A DNA stretch of 64,000 bases, taken from positions 19,314-83,313 of the forward strand of contig NIVC01003678.1 of NCBI GenBank assembly GCA_002269645.1. The letters are read 5' to 3'. A program made the position numbers and the translations under genes. Under the pieces are notes generated by a model, which saw only the letters and a program-made list of their open reading frames with translations, did no database searches and was not told the origin of the DNA. Below are positions 31,005 to 45,800 of this stretch, one piece after another. This DNA is from Macrostomum lignano (taxonomy: Eukaryota). Positions within the stretch are counted from its first letter, which is position 1. The number at the start of each line of letters is the position of its first letter.

Positions 31005-32049
31005 AGCCGAGACAGTGGCAGTACCGGTGCCAGATCAGACGGCCAGCACCTGTGCAAGGGCAATGCTCGAGGAGTGGGTCTGTCACTACGGAGCCCCAGG
31101 GACAATCCACTCGGATCAGGGAGCCAATTTCGAGTCGCAATTGCTCGGCCAGCTGTGCGAAAGTCTGAATATCCGAAAGACGCGTACGACCGCCTATCAC
31201 CCCTCTGGAAACGGCCAAGTGGAAAGCTTCAATAAGACGCTGACTGCAGTGATCCGGGCGCACCTGGTGAAGGAGCCGGATCAGAGGCGGTGGGACGAAT
31301 TCGTTGCCCCGGCGCTCATGGCGTATCGCTCCAGTGTGCACCGCGGCACCGGCCTTTCACCCTTCTTCCTTCTGCATGGTCGCGAGATGTCTCTGCCAGT
31401 TGACTTGGGAGTGGCGCGCCCACTGGACATCGAACCGTACTGCGAGGAAGTCCAGAACCTGCGGGAGACGCTCGTGGAAGCCCATCGGGTGGTGCGTGAG
31501 AGAATAACGTCATATCAACGAGTGCAGAAAGACTGGTACGACCGGAAGGTGAAGGGTCGAGAATTCGTGGCTGGCGACGAGGTGTTCGTCTACAACCCCG
31601 TGTTGAAGGCCGGTGCCAAAGCGAAGCTCCACTCACCCTGGACCGGACCTGCCGTAGTTCTCGAGAAGCTGTCGGAGACGCGCTATAGGATTCGACAGGA
31701 AGGTCGACGGAAGCCGATCAAAGTGGTGCACTTTAACAACCTCCTGCCTCGATACCGGAAGTACCCAGTCGACGGCACCGGTGGCCCTCGGCGTCCTGCA
31801 CCAAGGAGGTACCACCCAGGTCCTGCTCAAGAGACGGAATCCGTCAGGGAGGACTCGCAGGAATCAGACGATGAGGATGAGGAGCGATGGTGGCGACATT
31901 CCGGGCGGGTTCGAGAGGAGGGAGAACCAATGGATGTGCAGCAGCCAGGAGTGCAGCCGCAGCCGGAAGCGCCAGTTGAAGTCATCGAAGGTCGACCCCA
32001 GAGGGATCGAAGGGTTCCGCAGCGTTATGGAACGCCCGTGTATTATTAA
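31005..32049 (+). CDS. Gypsy integrase, C-terminal portion
   Basis: IHSDQGANFES, TTAYHPSGNGQVESFNKTL, AYRSSVHRGTGLSPFFLLHGRE, GPY/F-like PWTGPAVV; first catalytic D lost to truncation. Confidence 0.95.
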
Positions 32050-32069
32050 GAGCGGACGTGAGTGCGTGC

Positions 32070-32440
32070 GCAGTGTCGCGTCATCTCCTGCGTCATAAAT
32101 AATTGGTTCGAAGCATCATTCGCGTCATCTCCTGCGTCATAAATAAGTGGTTCGAAGCATCATTCGCGTCATCTCCTGCGTCATAAATAATTGGTTCGAA
32201 GCATCATCCGCGTCATCACCTGCGTCGTCAACATTTGGTTCGAAGCATCATCCGCGTCATCACCTGTGTCATAAATAATTGGTTCGAAGCATCATCCGCG
32301 TCATCTCCTGCGTCATAAATAAGTGGTTCGAAGCATCATTCGCGTCATCTCCTGCGTCATAAATAATTGGTTCGAAGCATCATCCGCGTCATCACCTGCG
32401 TCGTCAACATTTGGTTCGAAGCATCGTCTGCGTCATCACC
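32070..32440. repeat. ~44-bp tandem repeat inside the Gypsy element (CGCGTCATCTCCTGCGTCATAAATAATTGGTTCGAAGCATCAT-like)
   Basis: About eight units between the pol stop and the extra ORF. Confidence 0.9.
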
Positions 32441-32610
32441 CGCGTTATTGAAAACTGGGCTCGTGTTATTGCCTCTGCTTCACAAACAAAAATATATATT
32501 TCCCCTCTTAAGGCCCGTCAGGGGAGGTCCCACCTGCCCAACCCTGCCATCAGGGATGAAGGATCGGCGCCCCAAAGAGGCTCGAAGGAACCATTGCCCT
32601 GCTCTCAAAA

Positions 32611-33528
32611 GTGAGTCGTGGTTGTTGCAGGCACTGCTTTCCGGGCATAGACCTCTACGCCGAGTTTGGTGTCAGCCCCTTCGCGACGGAGGAGGAGCTG
32701 CGACGTGCGTACCGCCGTGAGAGCCTGCGACGGCACCCCGACAAGTGTGGACCCGGTGGAACGGAGAATTTCCAGAGGCTGCAGCATGCGAGTGCGGTCC
32801 TGCTGTGTCCGTTTCGACGAGCGCTGTACGACCGGTTCGGGCAGGATGCCGTTAGCAACCCGCTCGAGTGCGCCCGGTATTTTGTCCCGCCGGATGGGAT
32901 GTGCGTCCCGGAGGAGTTTGTCGTAACGATTGAAGACGAAACAGAAGAGTCAGACGAGGACAGGGAGTCGGAAGGAAGCGAGCGTGGTGGTTGCGGCGGC
33001 GAGGAGACTGCTCAGAGCTGCTGTGAAATCACGCAGTCAGAGGAAGAAGAGCTCTTGAATGAATCCGACGGCGAAACTTCGATGTCAGAAGACGAACCGG
33101 AGCTCGTCATCGACCAACGGGAGTCGCCAGCGTGGCTGATGAGGAGCGAGCCGAGTACCGAGGTGGAATACACCTGGAGCGGGGAGGCAACGCAGCGAAG
33201 AGCTCGAATCCGGTCGGAGCTTCGGCACGCTTTGTTGTCGGGGAGTCCAGCTGCGATGTTCCGGCTTTTGACTGAAATGGTGGGACTGTGCGGCAGCGAG
33301 CGGCTGGATCATCGACGCGAAATCGCCGAGCTTTTGGCTCAGACTGTCAAGTTCATTCTCCGTGACATCAGCGCCAAGTGTCGGGGTCATGCTCGGCGTG
33401 TCTGGCGGCGGCCTGCCTTCAAGCGAAGCACTCGGTTCGTCATGAGTGTTGCGATCCCTCAGTTTGAACTAATCGTCGGAGGACGCGTGTTGGGGTTGTT
33501 GCGCCGGGCGGCGGAGGTGGCGGTCTAG
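32611..33528 (+). CDS. Retrotransposon-borne DnaJ/J-domain protein (class C-like)
   Basis: DLYAEFGVSPFATEEELRRAYRRESLRRHPDK...FQRLQHASAVLLCPFRRALYDRFG; HPD at 32734-32742; followed by an acidic tract and a predicted helical C-terminus; no in-frame ATG upstream of the domain. Confidence 0.85.
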   Translation: MSRGCCRHCFPGIDLYAEFGVSPFATEEELRRAYRRESLRRHPDKCGPGGTENFQRLQHASAVLLCPFRRALYDRFGQDAVSNPLECARYFVPPDGMCVPEEFVVTIEDETEESDEDRESEGSERGGCGGEETAQSCCEITQSEEEELLNESDGETSMSEDEPELVIDQRESPAWLMRSEPSTEVEYTWSGEATQRRARIRSELRHALLSGSPAAMFRLLTEMVGLCGSERLDHRREIAELLAQTVKFILRDISAKCRGHARRVWRRPAFKRSTRFVMSVAIPQFELIVGGRVLGLLRRAAEVAV

Positions 33529-33649
33529 GGGGTTCTGGGGCAGGATGCCAGGGCGGGCAAGAGACCTTCACTCCTTCATTTCATCCCATCTCTCATCTGA
33601 TCGTCGTTGTGATCCCTCTGTTTGGCACTGGGAGCGGCCCCGAAGGAAG

Positions 33650-34322
33650 GGCGGGGAACACTCTCGGCCATGCCCGGCGTTCTCGGTCGCTGCCCGGTGT
33701 TTTCGGCCGCTGCCAGTCGTTCTCGGCCGCTGCCCGGCATTCTCGGCCGCTGCCCGGCATTCTCGGTCGCTGTCCGGCACTCTCGGCCATGCCCGGCGTT
33801 CTCGGTCGCTGCCCGGTGTTTTCGGCCGCTGCCAGTCGTTCTCGGCCGCTGCCCGGCATTCTCGGCCGCTGCCCGGCATTCTCGGTCGCTGTCCGGCATT
33901 CTCGGCCATGCCCGGCGTTTTCGGCCACAGCCCGGCATTCTCGGCCGCTGCCCGGCATTCTCGGCCGCTGCCCGGCATTCTCGGCCGCTGTCCGGCACTC
34001 TCGGCCATGCCCGGCGTTCTCGGTCGCTGCCCGGCATTCTCGGCCGCTGCCCGGCATTCTCGGCCGCTGTCCGGCACTCTCGGCCATGCCCGGCGTTCTC
34101 GGCCATGCCCGGCGTTCTCGGTCGCTGCCCGGCATTCTCGGCCGCTGTCCGGCATTCTCGGCCATGCCAGGCGTTCTCGGCCGCTGCCCGGCATTCTCGG
34201 TCGCTGTCCGGCATTCTCGGCCATGCCCGGCGTTTTCGGCCACAGTCCGGCATTCTCGGCCGTGCCCGGTGTTCTCGGCCTGTCCGACATCCTCGGCCCC
34301 TGTCCTGCGCTCTCGGCCGCTG
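33650..34322. repeat. GC-rich ~20-bp tandem repeat (GCCCGGCATTCTCGGCCGCT) upstream of the polypurine tract
   Basis: Tandem array; all six frames open, hence the artefactual ORFs. Confidence 0.95.
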
Positions 34323-34423
34323 CCTGACACTCTTGGTCTCTTTCATTCAGTTTCATTTCATTACATTTTTTTTTCATTTTCATTCAGTCAAAGCGCGTCG
34401 TTTTCTTTTTTTAGGGGGGAGGG

Positions 34424-35389
34424 TGTTGTGACCTGTGTCACAGTGCTCCCCTGGTGCAAGTGCACTTTGATAGTTGTTGACTTTGGTAGTTGATTATTGT
34501 TACCCCCCCCCCCGGCTCAAGCCAGTCTGGAGCTATGAGCCCTTTGGCTGAGCCTCTGCTCTCTTTCTCTCTCTCTCTCGCCTTGGCTGTTTAGCCCTTT
34601 GGCTAGCCGTGCTGATTGGCTGGGCCTCTGCTCTCTCTCCCTCTCCCTGGCCGTGCGCGCTTCCACCCTCCCCTCGCCGCAGCCAATCAGCTGTCAATCA
34701 GCTCCATTGTTTAAGCCCTTTCTCCCCCCCCTTGTTTGCGCCCCTGCCCCTTTTTACTCGTTATTTAAGGCGACGCTCAGACCCCGCCCCTTTTCTCACC
34801 GTGCCTGCGCCCCATTTGCGCCCACCGCGATAAATAAACGAACGTGACCAGCGATCAGCCGTAAAGACGGTCTCTTACTGCGAAGACTCAATTTATTGCA
34901 TGCCTGCGGCCTTCCCGTGTATGAGTGCTATAATCGACCCGGCCCGGTAAGCTGTCGAGACAATTGCCTGTGTTCCTCGGGGTCGCTCTCCTGATCTCTC
35001 TCTCTCTCACTCTCTCCTCAGTCTGACTCACCAGGCTGTCGAGTGGCCGACCGCCCGCAGCCCTCTCTCTCTTCCTTGACTCACCAGGCTGTCGAGTGGC
35101 CGCCCGCCCACAGCCCTCTCTCTTTTCCTTGATTCACCAGGCTGTCGAGTGGCCGACCGCCCGCAGCCCTCTCTCTCTTCCTTGACTCACCAGGCTGTCG
35201 AGTGGCCGCCTGCCCACAGCCGCCCCTCCCCTCTCTCTCGACTTCTCAACCTTGACCTCCCCCCGAAGTGTCCGTACGCCTCGGGGTCGCCGATCGAGCT
35301 CGTAAGCCCTGGGCAGTCTAGTACCCGAACCCCGACACCGCTACCCGTCGCCCAACCCGGCCGTGCCAGCGAGGAAGGGGGATACAACA
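34424..35389 (+). repeat. 3' LTR of the Gypsy element
   Basis: Starts TGTTGT directly after the polypurine tract, ends ACAACA; AATAAA at 34833; internal ~55-bp repeats at 35020-35230. Confidence 0.75.
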
Positions 35390-35964
35390 TATGCTCAAGC
35401 TCGAATGGCCTCCTTCACTCGCCTTCCGCTGCAGACGCTGACTCCCATTTCCATCTCCCCTATAATTGCATCACTTGCTTGAACAGCTTTCAACTTAAGG
35501 CTCCACTCGCAGAGTCCAATTCGACTCAGCCAGCAGCCAGAGGCGCATTGGGCAGCGCCTCTCGGTTTAAGCCGGCATTCCCGATCCATCTTAGCGGCTG
35601 CCGGCAGACCGGCCGATCGGCAAGGGCGCTGCTGGATTAGCCATGAGCTGATGCGCCTAGCTCTCTTCCCGGCTCTCTGCATCAATCTTCTCCTATACTT
35701 TATTTTCTTTTTTATAATGAAATTAGAATTAAAATGAACCCCTTTCATGCATTGCTGTGACGCTGTGACAATAGAAGATGAGAAGATATTATATTGAGCA
35801 TCCTTCCTCGATTTCGTGTAGATCGACTTAAGACCCTCAGATAGAACAGGTGGATTTCACTAGATCTCACGAATGGATAAATAGGAAAAATCGGTATTTC
35901 ATGACTCGTTCGTCCTCGGGTTTTAGCATTGGTTCTGTTGTTTTGGCTTGAAGCAAATACTCAC

Positions 35965-36757
35965 CCGATGAGTGCAGCAGAGTCTCCTCTACCCAAGCTC
36001 CCGGCACGACTATCGAACCCTGGACAGGCACCGGACAGCACGCTCGAGCAGTCGGATTGTCGGCGCCAGTTGGAGACGAGTAGAGGCGCCGGTAGCGACA
36101 GGGGCGACGCCTGCTGAGATGGCTGCGAGCTTTGATGATGATACACTGCAGGCTGCAGCTGCTGTGGTGGCGGCGGTGGCGGCGGTGGCGGCGTCTCCGG
36201 AGACGATCTGCGCTCCATGAACAGCCGATCCTCAGCGACCGACTCCCAGTCCAAGGCGTCGCATTTCAGGCAGAGACTCAGTCTTAAAGTTGAATTGTCC
36301 AGCCGCTGGTTGGGACTGTATGGCGTGAGAATGAAGGCTCGCTGCTCGGGCTGGTTGAGGCAACCGATCCCTGCGAGATGGATGTTCACAAAGCCGAGCT
36401 TAGAGAATGATCGGCCGCCTTTCTCTTCCTTTCTAACTGAGACGCGAATTGTTCCGGCTGGTAGGCGGCAGCTGAACTGCAACGGCGGCTCGTAGGGCTC
36501 GCCGGAGTCACCGTTGCCATTGGTTACTGCGCTGCAGTCGGTGCCGGACCACGTGACCCGATTGTCGCGAATCTCGCGCCGGCTTGAGTACCGGCAGAAC
36601 TGGCCACCGCTCAGTAGGCGAACCTTTGCAAACAGTACCCATTGCTAAGGGTGACACCTTCCATGCCATTTAGAGTTAGCTCGACGTCACATTTATACTG
36701 CTGGCGCTTAGCACTAGTTCGGGATTCATTTGAAGCGTGACGCACGCAACTGAACAT
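35965..36757 (-). CDS. EEIG1: Exon 1 of the EEIG1/FAM102-like NT-C2 domain protein, with an apparent 1-bp deletion near 36639
   Basis: KRQQYKCDVELTL..SNG/VLFAKVRLLSGG..SSRREIRDNRVTW..IRVSVRKEEKGGRSFSKLGF..RLDNSTLRLSL matches the FAM102 NT-C2 pattern; GTGAGT donor at 35964 (phase 2). Confidence 0.85.
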
Positions 36758-40991: not shown

Positions 40992-41307
40992 AAATGGTCA
41001 TATATTCTTTAAATCTCTAAGGTAAAAACTTTAATAAGCCAAAAAAATAAAAAAACAGTGAAATAACTAATAAAAATAAGTGTTTTTTCTTTAACAAACA
41101 AAAATTCTGTATAAAATAAAATGCAAAGAATATAAAAACTATATATAAGTTATTAAAATATATCTAAATATCTAAAACTATGTATGAAATGTAGCCATGT
41201 ATGCAATGTTTTTCATATGCTTTCTTTGATTGTTCTTTTTAATTTTTTCATAAATTTTTGACTCCTTTTTTGACAATTTATCCAATTATTGTGGATGTTA
41301 ATAGATC

Positions 41308-44300
41308 GGGTCCATGAGACTTGCCCGCAGGCGAACTGCCCGCCGAGATTTGCCCGCAGGAGATTTGCCCGTCGAGATTTGCCCGCCGAGGTTTGCCCGC
41401 AGAGATTTGCCCGCAGTGCATTCTGCCCGCAGGAGATTTGCCCGTCGAGATTTGCCCGTCGAGATTTGCCCGTCGAGATTTGCCTGTCGAGATTTTCCCG
41501 CAGAGATTTTCCCGTCGAGATTTTCCCGTCGAGATTTTCCCGTCGAGATTTGCCCGCAGAGATTTGCCCGCAGAGATTTTCCCGCAATGCAGTTTTAATC
41601 TTGCAAAAATCGACTTATACTTATCGAAATTATTTACCTGCCAGATTTCAACCGTGTGAATCTGAAACTTTTACTGCCGCAAATGCATAAGATATTTCTT
41701 TGGCATTCCGCAGACACCTCAAATTTCCTTTCTGCTAAATTACTGTAGCCTGTTCTATAATCTTTTGTAGCAGCAATTTTTTGCTGGTGGAGCAGCTCAC
41801 ATAGCTTGTCGCATATTTTAATAAGGTAATGACTTTATTTTTCCCTTGACAGAACCGCACAATACAATAGCTATTTTTGTACATTCACTTGGCAAAAAGT
41901 AGAACAAGGTATTTAAGCGTCGCAAGTCAAAAGATGGTGAGGCTGTAGGTATCATTGGCATTAATTGCGAATTAACAGGTTCAACAGCGATTGTACAATC
42001 ACTATGCATGCATAATACAAGCGAAAATGAATTGCAGTAGGTAAATTAGCAATTTTCACTCTACTTAGCTCACACATTAACGGAATTTAGCACCCCTAAG
42101 GAGCAAATCTTCCGATGTGCAGCGCCAGCACATCCATTTGATCCTTCCCTATTCATTCCCTTTCAATCAAGTCCTTGGGTTCAATTACTTAAAACAACTT
42201 TGTACTCTACTGCATTTTTCACTTTGCATTCGCTTAACGATAACTTTTGATTGAGCAATAATGAAAACAATATGAAAATGATTGACCAATTGTTAACATT
42301 TACTGTGCATCGCAAGACAGGAACAGGTGGATGACGGAGTACATGGCAACAAAAGCATTCAGTGATACAGTTACAATGGCAACCTACAAGAGGAAGGGAA
42401 GGGAATGGGGAGGAGGGGTGAGTTGTTATGTAGGCAGAAGACTGTGGGTTCACTGAACTTCTCTGACCTAACCAAATTTCAGAAACTAGAAGCAACCGCA
42501 GTGCTAAATACGAGGGTTTAAAGTGCACAAAGTGAATGCCTTTGCGAATCCCATGGAAGCGGGAACTATTACAGTATTATATAGGCCACAATGAAACTAG
42601 AGCACAGAATATTAAATTTATTGCTTCTTAGTGTAGTGCAGCAAGAAACCAAAATTGTAAGGATAGCTACCGTTGTCAATCAGATCACTTCTTCAAATGG
42701 TGAGCGATGCCCCTCAGGTAGGAACGCAAAGGAAAGTCAGCAGGCAGACCGCCACCTTCGACGTTCCAACGCTGCGTGACGCGAAGAAGCATCGCGTTGC
42801 TCTGCACGTATCTCTTCCGCTCCTTCGGTGCTTCACTAGCGTTGGCTCGCTGCATCAGCAGTGCCTGGTGTTCGACTTCCTTTTTGAGGTCCTTCATGAG
42901 CCGAAAAACATTCGGATTGCTGCAACCCAGAATTGACTGGAACCTCCTATGCCAGGCTTCAACTGCGTTGTTCGTGCGATGAAGTCCATTCAAAGTTCGC
43001 TCACGAACATTCCAAATTGAAGGTGAGAATCGAGGCTGCCGTCTTCCTCCGCCAGGAAGTCGATGGCCGACCCACTGGGCTTCAAAATAGTCTGCTGTTG
43101 AAGCCATCTCCGCAGGAAAGTCAGGCAGCATTATTAACTCATCAAATGCTGCTGGAACACTATTAATAGGCACAAAGGCCAAAGCAGAAAGGCAACGCAG
43201 CCAGACGGACATCTCGCCATCTTCTTCAATCTGACGCTTTAATCCCTCAGCAACTGCTCTTCTGTACACGCACTGAACGAGGTGAAATAGACAGCCTGTT
43301 GACTCGATGCCAAAGACATGCTGAACAGCATTCATGTTAGCTCGCTCAAAATCTGACATCCAGCGAAGTGGCCTCATGTTCGGCGCCAATTGATGCAGAG
43401 CCTCGTAAAATCGACAGTACGTTGCTTCGGTCTTGTTGGGTAGCAATGCGTAGATGAGTGGTCTTATGAAGCCTTGAAGTTCGGCATGCACTGTCACCAG
43501 TTGAGCGAACAGTGGCGGCGAGGCATCGAATGTGCCGTCCGAGAAGAAATCTGTCGCCAATTGCAGGGCTTGAATGTTATCCTCGCTACCGAAGATTAAA
43601 ATTCGATTGTTGTCCTGTCCGGAGTCATGCAGCAGAAACAGTGCTCCGTTGTTGAATTGAAATTCTTCAGGTATAATGAGCTCGGCTCGATTGAGCGGCT
43701 GTACTGGAAGACCTTGGTGCGTTTGACGAACATCTTGAACTTGCCGCTTTAATGCGCTTTGAGATGGAAGGGCTATGCCTGCACACTCAGACAGCCCATT
43801 TGTGTGTTCCATGACGATATTTGCCGTCGAATTCACGGTGTTCCTGGCATCCGATTTAATCTCCCGAAGAGCCTCAAGAACTTGGAATCGAGAGCCGTCA
43901 GGTCCGTGATTGTGGTCATTCAGCTGTCGCACTTTAAAGCCATTCCGGATGTGGATTCGAGCAGGACATGATCCCAAGCGCCGTTCTTCACACTGCCAAA
44001 ATGACACCTCTTCGTCGACCAGGCTAGTTCTTTCAAGTGTAAAGTAGTAGCCTTCGCAGGCTGCTTTGCGCTTCCCACGAATTGTTGCACTAAAGCGCAC
44101 AGCGATGGGAGGAGCTGCTTCCATGTGGTCTGCTTGTTATTAACGTTGTCTTGAAATTCACTTTATATATGTAGAGTTGTCGCAGTCTAACTTGACCAGA
44201 CTAAAGTTGAATACACTAAGCAGTAAGGAAGGGCAGTGTATTTATATATTATAGGAGATAACAGGGGGTTGAGAGAAAGGAGGGGTGGGCAAAGAGAGGG

Positions 44301-45562
44301 GTTGGGTTAGGAGGCGCGATCAAAGGAATGAGGGGCACGCAAGACAAGAAGGAGGCTAAAGGGGTGGGGTGCCTGCAGCCAATCAGAAAGAGAAGAGAGA
44401 ATGAGAGACCCAGACCCAGACCCAGAGAGAATGAAATCCAGACAGATTTTATGGACATTTTATCGAAGACTGGGAATTGAGATATAGGGGTCCAGGATAG
44501 AATTAGCGAGAAAGAATCACATCAGACTTTGTTTACACTGCTTTCTGGATCTTTAGCGAGGAGTTAATAAGCAGGTCTTTAAATTTCATTAAATTTGTTA
44601 TATAGATAAGCCAGCTGCCCGTCGCCACATGCACAAGGCGATGTTTTTAGAAAATGCTCTGCATACTCATACTCTATGTAAGGGCCAGATTATAAAATGT
44701 CGTGGGGTCCCCGACATGCACCATATAGGACTCCATGGCTTATTTACTGGATTTGTCGTTCGGTGGTTGAGCAGATCGAGGTGATAAAATCCAGGCGGCT
44801 GACATGTGAATTTGAAACAGACAGCGCTCCACCAGCTAGAGATTCCAATACCGGGACCGGGATTTGAGAGCAAACACCTGGAATTCCAATCTCAGGACTT
44901 AAAATTGCCCACCATTCAGCGGGATTTCAATTTTTCGGGATTTGCTGGGACTGAAAATGCTGGGGATTTTATGGGAGTTGGACAGGAATATCCCGAACCC
45001 GACAATCCTGGGATTGGAAACTAGCCGGGATTTTACCATCCCTACCACCAGGCACCAGCAAAAAATTGCTGCTACAAAAGATTATAGAACAGGCTACAGT
45101 AATTTAGCAGAAAGGAAATTTGAGGTGTCTGCGGAATGCCAAAGAAATATCTTATGCATTTGCGGCAGTAAGAGTTTCAGATTCACACGGTTGAAATCTG
45201 GCAGGTAAATAATTTCGATAAGTATAAGTCGATTTTTGCAAGATTAAAACTGCATTGCGGGAAAATCTCTGCGGGCAAATCTCTGCGGGCAAATCTCTGC
45301 GGGCAAATCTCGACGGGAAAATCTCGATGGGAAAATCTCTGCGGGAAAATCTCGACAGGCAAATCTCGACGGGCAAATCTCGACGGGCAAATCTCGACGG
45401 GCAAATCTCGACGGGCAAATCTCGACGGGCAAATCTCCTGCGGGCAGAATGCACTGCGGGCAAATCTCTGCGGGCAAACCTCGGCGGGCAAATCTCGACG
45501 GGCAAATCTCCTGCGGGCAAATCTCGGCGGGCAGTTCGCCTGCGGGCAAGTCTCGTGCTCCC
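41308..45562 (-). mobile_element. Mutator-like (MULE) DNA transposon with ~480-bp modular TIRs
   Basis: TIRs ~41308-41790 and ~45060-45562 containing 14-bp subrepeats GAGATTTGCCCGTC; perfect 8-bp TSD AATAGATC. Confidence 0.93.
42685..44124 (-). CDS. FLYWCH-MULE transposase, 479 aa, uninterrupted
   Basis: FLYWCH-like YYF..FWQCEE..CPARI..HNH; FSDGTF, MSDFE, GCLFH, RTNNAVEAWH. Confidence 0.93.
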   Translation of the reverse strand: MEAAPPIAVRFSATIRGKRKAACEGYYFTLERTSLVDEEVSFWQCEERRLGSCPARIHIRNGFKVRQLNDHNHGPDGSRFQVLEALREIKSDARNTVNSTANIVMEHTNGLSECAGIALPSQSALKRQVQDVRQTHQGLPVQPLNRAELIIPEEFQFNNGALFLLHDSGQDNNRILIFGSEDNIQALQLATDFFSDGTFDASPPLFAQLVTVHAELQGFIRPLIYALLPNKTEATYCRFYEALHQLAPNMRPLRWMSDFERANMNAVQHVFGIESTGCLFHLVQCVYRRAVAEGLKRQIEEDGEMSVWLRCLSALAFVPINSVPAAFDELIMLPDFPAEMASTADYFEAQWVGHRLPGGGRRQPRFSPSIWNVRERTLNGLHRTNNAVEAWHRRFQSILGCSNPNVFRLMKDLKKEVEHQALLMQRANASEAPKERKRYVQSNAMLLRVTQRWNVEGGGLPADFPLRSYLRGIAHHLKK

Positions 45563-45800
45563 AATAGATCACTGCACAAAAAATGCACAAAAAGTCAAAC
45601 AAAAAACTCATAGAAAAGTGTTCATAACTTTTAGTTTTAGATCAATTTTCATGAACTAAATGTTTTTGAAAACCTCTTAGCAAGATCTATACAATAAAAT
45701 GCAAATAGGCGTATTTCCTTATTTTTCAAGTATATGTTTGTATACTAACATATTATAGTACAATATAAGCAATAATTTTTCATGCTTTCCCCATCGACAG

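Follow-up and report, generated by a model that had tools for sequence, protein, structure and literature searches.

Osvaldo carries an env gene. In errantiviruses and Osvaldo, env is a third open reading frame behind the integrase. The third ORF (ORF3) of the Ty3/Gypsy copy analysed here, which lies in a 64,000-nucleotide stretch of Macrostomum lignano DNA (the window), likewise stands behind the integrase and is preceded by an acceptor-like site, but it matched no env family at E 0.1 and is predicted by modelling to encode a soluble helical protein; the env position originally described for it holds as a matter of location only. J domains occur in 11 RNA virus families (10.1101/2022.02.15.480533), and in these viruses and the polyomavirus T antigens, as probably in ORF3, a mobile element uses host Hsp70 through a J domain of its own. 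The viral J domains sit in replication proteins or polyproteins, whereas ORF3 is a stand-alone third frame with an unrelated helical domain. Chromoviruses (PMC6338049) are Gypsy elements with a chromodomain, as are ORF3 families C and C2, but the chromovirus domain forms the integrase C-terminus and that of family C lies inside the ORF3 of one branch. VANC of the VANDAL transposons, according to PMC13547354, is an accessory protein probably captured from the host and turned against silencing; it belongs to a DNA transposon, has an unrelated fold and no J domain, and its anti-silencing action has been shown, whereas that of ORF3 is only proposed. The Gmr1/Osvaldo family Mlig-id38 (PMC12801592) shares gag and PR-RT-RH-INT with the ORF3 families but lacks ORF3. 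DnaJ is absent from the main text of that paper and appears in its supplements, where just 6 of the 137 families have their sequences given, only among gene annotations in the rows listed. No LTR retrotransposon with a J-domain ORF was found in literature titles and abstracts, a scope outside which lay Biryukov et al. (2020), Repbase, GyDB and Dfam, or by keyword in PMC8775202, PMC9004415, 10.1101/2022.06.16.496473, PMC6338049 and PMC13547354. It is through accessory genes that retroelements combat their hosts, and none of those named in the literature checked is a J-domain gene.

The copy in the window consists of integrase, ORF3 with its J domain, polypurine tract and LTR, in that order (Table 1). 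The integrase frame indeed ends at 32049, with rve and Integrase_p58_C matched, and the predicted polypurine tract and TG...CA LTR were confirmed downstream of an ORF that is intronless and within the element. Similarity of the pol piece to full elements (98%) begins at 31013, and the piece matches residues 1031–1374 of an intact pol at 99.4%; the copy is 5'-truncated and therefore lacks gag, RT and the 5' LTR. The length of 305 codons first given for the ORF had been counted from a GTG; in sister copies the frame opens with a Met aligned to window 32647 and is 293 codons long, whereas the window copy reads Ile there. Met was found at the start in 13/13 other full-length family A copies, among them C1446, in which a second contig carries this very insertion. 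The GC-rich, integrase-like codon usage noted earlier is not diagnostic (GC3: integrase 0.65, ORF3 0.68, the one host DnaJ gene compared 0.71).

Table 1. Features of the Ty3/Gypsy copy, in window coordinates.
Feature	Position	Strand	Evidence
pol, 3' part: core and C-terminal domain of the integrase	31013..32049	+	Pfam rve, Integrase_p58_C
Tandem array, 44-bp unit, 8.2 copies, pol/ORF3 gap	32077..32437	+	TRF
Splice-acceptor-like TTGCAG (predicted), 16 nt before ORF3	32625..32630	+	
ORF3, 293 codons and a stop; opens with a non-Met codon in this copy	32647..33528	+	
J domain (HPD 32734-32742)	32650..32832	+	PF00226
Acidic linker, predicted disordered	32944..33180	+	pLDDT <50 at residues 100-173; charge profile
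Lineage-specific five-helix domain with Arg-rich segment	33181..33525	+	alignment of 13
Tandem array, 20-bp unit, 33.7 copies, 3' untranslated region	33662..34324	+	TRF
Polypurine tract	34413..34423	+	
3' LTR, TG...CA, 966 bp	34424..35389	+	97-99% to LTRs of full copies
Host spliced-leader exon copy inside LTR	34858..34902	+	identical over 45 nt to SL RNA genes of G000
Splice-donor-like GTAAGC in LTR (predicted)	34947..34952	+	

Full copies complete the picture. In copy C108, a gag with a CCHC knuckle is followed by PR-RT-RNase H-integrase (Pfam), and the PBS of families A, B and E matches host tRNA-Lys(TTT) genes. The family A pol, the only one scanned with Pfam for this purpose, has no chromodomain at the integrase C-terminus. 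Among seven LTR pairs from full copies (the window copy has a 3' LTR only), 0–10 substitutions were counted across 765–962 columns, and an exact 4-bp TSD was scored in four; visual inspection added C245 and C230. The ORF3-bearing Ty3/Gypsy elements are a recently inserted lineage. Arrays between pol and LTR are present in families A, B and G and in the ORF3-less C3200, and absent from C, E, F and H; the 44-bp array has 5.4 copies in C108. Given this uneven spread, the idea that the arrays are ORF3 binding sites was rejected as a general feature. A heat-shock-element link was dropped, since neither the window LTR nor the six ORF3-family LTRs scanned contain a canonical element.

ORF3 is almost certainly an accessory gene that a single Ty3/Gypsy clade has conserved. 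Sequence of it lies downstream of the integrase, between pol and LTR, at 22/22 close (family A) loci, full length at 14 and broken or partial at 7, and the one-off retrocopy insertion that would have undercut the original prediction is not what the genome holds. At least seven related families (~30% protein identity) carry ORF3 in the same place; B, C, E, F, G and H have the same pol-ORF3-LTR layout. The ORF3 families form one RT clade (29 rows, support 100/98), which adjoins a group with natural copies of the published id38 (Gmr1/Osvaldo; 95/85), away from the CsRN1 and Mag anchors, in a tree that contains no named Osvaldo or Gmr1 sequence. ORF3 has been passed on vertically together with RT. 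Several lineages of the clade have lost it and, because C3200/C2269 and C23/C4067 lie within the clade without it, ORF3 is dispensable at least in cis.

The ORF3 protein runs from the J domain through an acidic linker to the Arg-rich helical domain. The predicted complete J domain with intact HPD was borne out (PF00226 E = 1.4e-12; score 47.9 bits, cut-off 27.8), and its model superposes on the ERdj5 J domain (Z 9.9, rmsd 1.2, 69 residues). Families A, B, C, E and G, but not H, score above the PF00226 cut-off and have the four-helix fold with HPD between helices II and III. HPD is not invariant: it is kept in 13/14 full-length A copies, in B, C, E and G and in five outside homologs, and lost in family H, which nevertheless retains an open 558-codon ORF. 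The DnaJ C-terminal substrate domain (PF01556), present in host C32, is absent from the six ORF3 proteins scanned, and by its domain content ORF3 appears to be a class C-like J protein and not a class A/B DnaJ. In the J tree, 16 element and 5 host sequences separate at only 83/91, and the donor DnaJ class is not identifiable from it. A 1449-aa J protein and C1013 proved unrelated to the element.

The Arg-rich helical domain is novel. It has a basic character, R69 and two Gly hardly vary, and its model is confident (pLDDT 90, pTM 0.81); the best fold match, AppA SCHIC (Z 8.7, rmsd 2.7, 87 residues), lies within the helical-bundle background. Nine matches were obtained among 1.84 billion proteins, and none in BFVD at E 0.001, in viral contigs or in two metagenome scans. 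One word-based search gave a single weak DnaJ match and the other returned only the query, ESM Atlas held no usable match, and the window protein had no exact match in the protein collection looked up.

Two kinds of add-on domain, each mapping to a single RT branch, point, as we read the sequences, towards a nuclear role of ORF3. An HP1/Swi6-like chromodomain lies in the ORF3 linker region of families C and C2 (PF00385 E = 1.4e-12 in C); the best solved-structure match of the family C domain is Swi6 (E = 2.6e-10), and two of three cage aromatics are present in C by our own reading of the Swi6 alignment, and three in C2. F and H carry a TatD-like domain, a weak match under the cut-off (E = 4.9e-5), in whose alignment the GE motif is kept, unlike the ETD motif and the His that follows the LP motif; in TatD nucleases these positions supply the His and acidic ligands of the metal. 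Because neither add-on is present in most families, that of the window among them, the nuclear reading is carried over from related families.

The ORF3 J domain would probably, by analogy with J-protein biology, recruit host Hsp70, which HPD stimulates, and the non-J domain would pick the client, as in class C J proteins. The helical domain would probably direct ORF3 to a nucleoprotein complex that sits on the DNA of the element in the nucleus; going by the add-on domains, the client would be chromatin-bound, and because of this Hsp70 would be expected to act on a silencing or an integration complex, either loosening the former on element copies or dismantling the latter after strand transfer. 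We give this mechanism as a whole, an Hsp70 recruiter aimed by its helical domain at such a complex, an even chance of being right. A more elaborate version is possible but tentative: a modular Hsp70 adaptor that reads heterochromatin in the chromodomain branch or nucleic acid in the TatD-like branch and strips silencing or integration complexes through Hsp70, in elements whose RNA 5' end is disguised by the host's spliced leader; this would be the first retrotransposon lineage to have a chaperone-steering gene of its own.

Auxilin brings Hsp70 to clathrin cages, an analogy for particle uncoating, and ORF3 might similarly be cytoplasmic and enlist Hsp70 for the folding or processing of Gag-Pol, or for building or uncoating the particle. 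The J domain with the helical domain alone is the commonest ORF3 layout (A, B, E, G), as this would have it, and 10.1101/2022.02.15.480533 proposes polyprotein folding or virion assembly for RNA virus J domains; a chromodomain under selection and a TatD-like domain make little sense for a purely cytoplasmic task, however, and close relatives do without ORF3, and we regard it as rather unlikely. Those relatives would be permitted if ORF3 acted in trans on behalf of all elements, as a decoy diverting Hsp70 from Piwi/Argonaute small-RNA loading or another defence. Argonaute loading is known to depend on Hsp70/Hsp90, but a simple Hsp70 sink would not need a conserved helical domain, and family H retains its ORF without HPD; a decoy thus seems improbable to us.

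That ORF3 is a captured host DnaJ fragment carried as a functionless passenger is largely refuted, and we give it very little credence. The 7/22 broken or partial family A loci, the 8/14 variant codons within family A that are non-synonymous and the loss in several lineages would fit a passenger; against it, frames are open at ~30% identity in five families, five outside homologs have HPD, and dN/dS is below 1, mostly 0.1–0.3 between subfamilies, which indicates purifying selection. Between A and A2, dN/dS was 0.12–0.17 for the J domain and 0.14–0.16 for the helical domain; it was 0.25 at dS 0.12 between E and C615 and 0.31 for the chromodomain of C and C2. The dS of distant pairs is near saturation, and near-identical pairs are noisy (ratios 0 to 3.05). 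The function of ORF3 is directly testable because nature supplies variants that have lost HPD or the whole gene or have acquired a chromodomain or a TatD-like domain. ORF3 also connects viral J domains with the dependence of transposon silencing on chaperones, in a model animal for which transgenesis and RNAi are available.

ORF3 is predicted to be translated from an env-type spliced subgenomic RNA. An AG site similar to that of the window copy lies 0–16 nt upstream of ORF3 in all families inspected (YAG occupies only 2.5–3.4% of positions in pol), and a short ATG frame upstream of the LTR donor-like site is in a phase that fits the ORF3 acceptor. No spliced RNA at this acceptor was seen in four runs, where a single contig reads through the site without splicing and the joints listed include none to it. 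The spliced-leader exon copy in the LTR stops at the point that corresponds to the donor of the SL RNA gene and contains the published 35-nt leader. In contrast to Cer1 (C. elegans), Cassandra, Helenus and Ajax, the family here is autonomous and has the exon itself fixed in the DNA of its LTR; spliced leaders are not mentioned in PMC10886601. The LTR exon reaches very high depth in the four runs, and its fixation is a second oddity of these elements and a pitfall for the mapping of spliced-leader reads in the Macrostomum lignano genome.

In the open-frame reading of the window, the integrase frame stops at 32049 and, as the original prediction held, a J-domain frame lies 3' of it. The match of this frame to the Pfam DnaJ profile (PF00226) exceeds the family cut-off (E = 1.4e-12), rve and Integrase_p58_C domains lie upstream, and the anticipated polypurine tract and LTR follow (see table). 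The original length of 305 codons was not upheld; this extra gene (ORF3) has 293 codons counted from 32647. The window copy is 5'-truncated, with likeness to full elements beginning at 31013. Of the 14 full-length copies of family A, the window's own family, 13 have Met at the 32647 position; only the window copy has Ile. Because C1446, a contig carrying the same insertion with matching flanks, has the start Met, its loss is private to the window's contig and is due to a mutation or to an error in the assembly. The minus-strand frame past the LTR is probably a host exon.

Features of the window copy and of ORF3 and other frames elsewhere in the genome
Feature	Position (strand)	Size	Remark
Open frame	32560-33528	322 codons	contains ORF3
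Polypurine tract	34413-34423		
LTR	34424-35389		TG...CA ends; 3' of the polypurine tract
Host spliced-leader exon copy	34858-34902	45 nt	in family A LTR; matches SL RNA genes
Frame past the LTR	35961-36644 (-)	227 codons	~570 bp past LTR; weak NT-C2 (EEIG1/EHBP1-type) match, E=0.3
Inverted repeats	41305-41789 and 45053-45565	357 nt at 99%	~3.3 kb apart; resemble DNA transposon ends
Family B ORF3		315 aa	3' of integrase
Family C ORF3		328 aa	3' of integrase
Family C ORF3 with chromodomain	L043:103-1086 (-)		
Family E ORF3		327 aa	3' of integrase
Family F ORF3			3' of integrase; only broken copies seen
Family G ORF3		283 aa	3' of integrase
Family H ORF3	L073:4897-6570 (+)	558 aa	3' of integrase
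J-domain frame unrelated to ORF3	L137:1223-5572 (-)	1449 aa	intronless; J domain N-terminal

Queries with ORF3 and with the integrase core each gave at least 150 matches in the genome assembly (G000). Among the integrase matches listed, 22 had at least 96% identity, and ORF3 sequence lay downstream in all 22, which bears out the predicted position between pol and LTR. ORF3 was full length in 14 of these loci, open but 10 codons shorter in one and broken or partial in seven; the assembly is redundant, and therefore the loci are not independent insertions. The complete LTR-gag-pol-ORF3-LTR structure was present in three of four opened copies. Insertion is recent, since seven LTR pairs from five families differed by 0–10 substitutions apiece and four of the seven, as scored, had an exact 4-bp target duplication. 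In families A, B and E the primer-binding site corresponds to host tRNA-Lys(TTT).

Related families carry ORF3 at the same place (see table), with 29–34% identity to family A for B, C, E and G. A DnaJ family search listed 23 rows with B-like and 21 with C-like scores, from which 5 B and 7 C loci were opened; family H had 16 rows of like score among the integrase matches listed (4 loci opened). Twenty further loci from the integrase list had ORF3 in 6, only a TatD-like end in 2 and none in 12, two of the last apparently interrupted. In a reverse transcriptase (RT) tree of 39 rows (C349 left out as too short; C17 represented by a different, neighbouring RT), every ORF3 carrier belonged to a single 29-row clade (support 100/98). 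Its sister group (95/85) includes natural copies of id38, a published Gmr1/Osvaldo family; the CsRN1 and Mag anchors fell outside. Losses of ORF3 are nested inside the clade (C3200/C2269, C23/C4067), and the J-domain tree weakly supports a single origin (83/91). A single capture, then vertical descent with some losses, fits best. In one family G locus (L065, contig C506), an internal deletion joins pol to ORF3 in frame, a fusion annotated as hypothetical protein PAA81942.1. The unrelated 1449-aa frame, with five like-scoring rows, is possibly another mobile or expanded gene.

The prediction that dN/dS is below 1 was supported in informative pairs (0.06–0.34, Nei-Gojobori counts), although near-identical pairs were noisy (0 to 3.05) and distant pairs near saturation. 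Between the subfamilies A and A2, the ratio was 0.12–0.17 for the J domain (3 pairs), 0.14–0.16 for the helical domain (2 pairs) and 0.04–0.06 for pol. It was 0.25 for E versus C615 (27 synonymous, 22 non-synonymous; dS 0.12), 0.16–0.20 for E versus E2, 0.34 for H versus C647 and 0.06–0.17, where defined, for F segments versus C340/C513. Within family A, 6 of 14 variant ORF3 codons were synonymous. All but one of the 14 full-length family-A copies retain an intact Hsp70-directed HPD motif; its supposed invariance fails, as the J-like domain of family H, which precedes a TatD-like C-terminus, has no HPD.

In the modelled ORF3 protein an acidic, disordered linker joins the J domain, which matches ERdj5 (Z 9.9; 69 residues at rmsd 1.2), to a domain of five helices. 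Structure comparison gave this five-helix domain a best Z of 8.7, which is not a convincing match to any fold. Among 1.84 billion proteins it had just 9 matches: two from Macrostomum lignano, six from Logan or JGI and one that is doubtful. One M. lignano match is an automatic gene model, 'J domain-containing protein', with pol pieces and family B ORF3. Five full or near-full outside homologs (proteins alone) keep J domain, HPD, linker and helical domain, have 34–76% identity to the nearest family and are nested among the element families. Families C and C2 have an inserted chromodomain, nearest to Swi6 and HP1 (between the J and helical domains in a family C copy). Families F and H have an appended TatD-like domain, a weak match with several catalytic residues apparently missing.

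J domains stimulate Hsp70 via HPD, and the client is chosen by other domains. We propose, giving it about an even chance from the domain content, that the ORF3 J domain would bring host Hsp70 to a complex on the element's DNA in the nucleus, where Hsp70 would loosen silencing or dismantle the integration complex. This nuclear role is favoured because the core domain is rich in Arg and each of the two gained domains is a module for chromatin or nucleic acid. Service in particle assembly or uncoating is possible but rather unlikely, and a decoy acting against small-RNA loading is more doubtful still. The J-domain ORF3 is real, lineage-wide and under selection; that it is a neutral passenger we regard as highly improbable.

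J domains occur in RNA viruses and polyomaviruses, according to the part of 10.1101/2022.02.15.480533 consulted. In the portions covered of PMC12801592, DnaJ was absent from the main text; the keyword matches displayed from five supplements were gene annotations. In line with the suggestion that no Gypsy lineage with a J-protein had been described, no J-domain accessory gene in an LTR retrotransposon was found in the literature as sampled (including parts of PMC6338049, PMC13547354, PMC8775202, PMC9004415 and 10.1101/2022.06.16.496473). The coverage extended to passages of PMC3315495 and PMC10886601. As far as the searches reach, this is a Ty3/Gypsy variant with a previously undescribed accessory gene of putative function.

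An acceptor-like AG lies 0–16 nt 5' of ORF3 in every family. In B, C and E it abuts the ATG; A2 and F also have it but no ATG of their own at that place. The family A LTR has a donor-like site, its upstream ATG frame being in phase with ORF3. Four sequence runs placed on copy C108 covered 30 of 30 bins each, mostly at depth about 6–40. Transcription is only suggested, since that the runs are RNA is a guess. The subgenomic transcript looked for did not appear: among the joints listed for the four runs on C108 none led to the ORF3 acceptor, and one contig crossed it unspliced in each, though rare forms are dropped from contigs. At L037:3181 and 9891, a contig in two runs joins the spliced leader (SL) stretch to a point near the ORF3 end with no AG before it, which may be chance.

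One LTR bin of C108 reached depth 28,000–82,000 (four runs) and contains the M. lignano spliced leader, of 35 nt in the part of PMC8629364 consulted. Together with the two M. lignano protein matches, the leader marks this species as the probable host. The exon copy lies ~20 nt 3' of an AT-rich ATAAATAAA motif and, among elements scanned, is limited to family A. Because the match in the window LTR ends exactly at the SL RNA gene donor, capture from trans-spliced RNA via reverse transcription is suggested. Sister LTRs match two bases less, some with up to two upstream differences, and the last two bases, matched solely by the window copy, could be an assembly-polishing effect. A 33-nt part of the stretch is matched exactly at 84 places in the assembly; the 26 opened comprised 7 SL RNA genes, 7 family-A LTRs and 12 other copies (L093, L094, L096, L115, L119, L121, L123-L125, L129, L131, L132), several in repeated contexts, which are likely retrocopies or other repeats.
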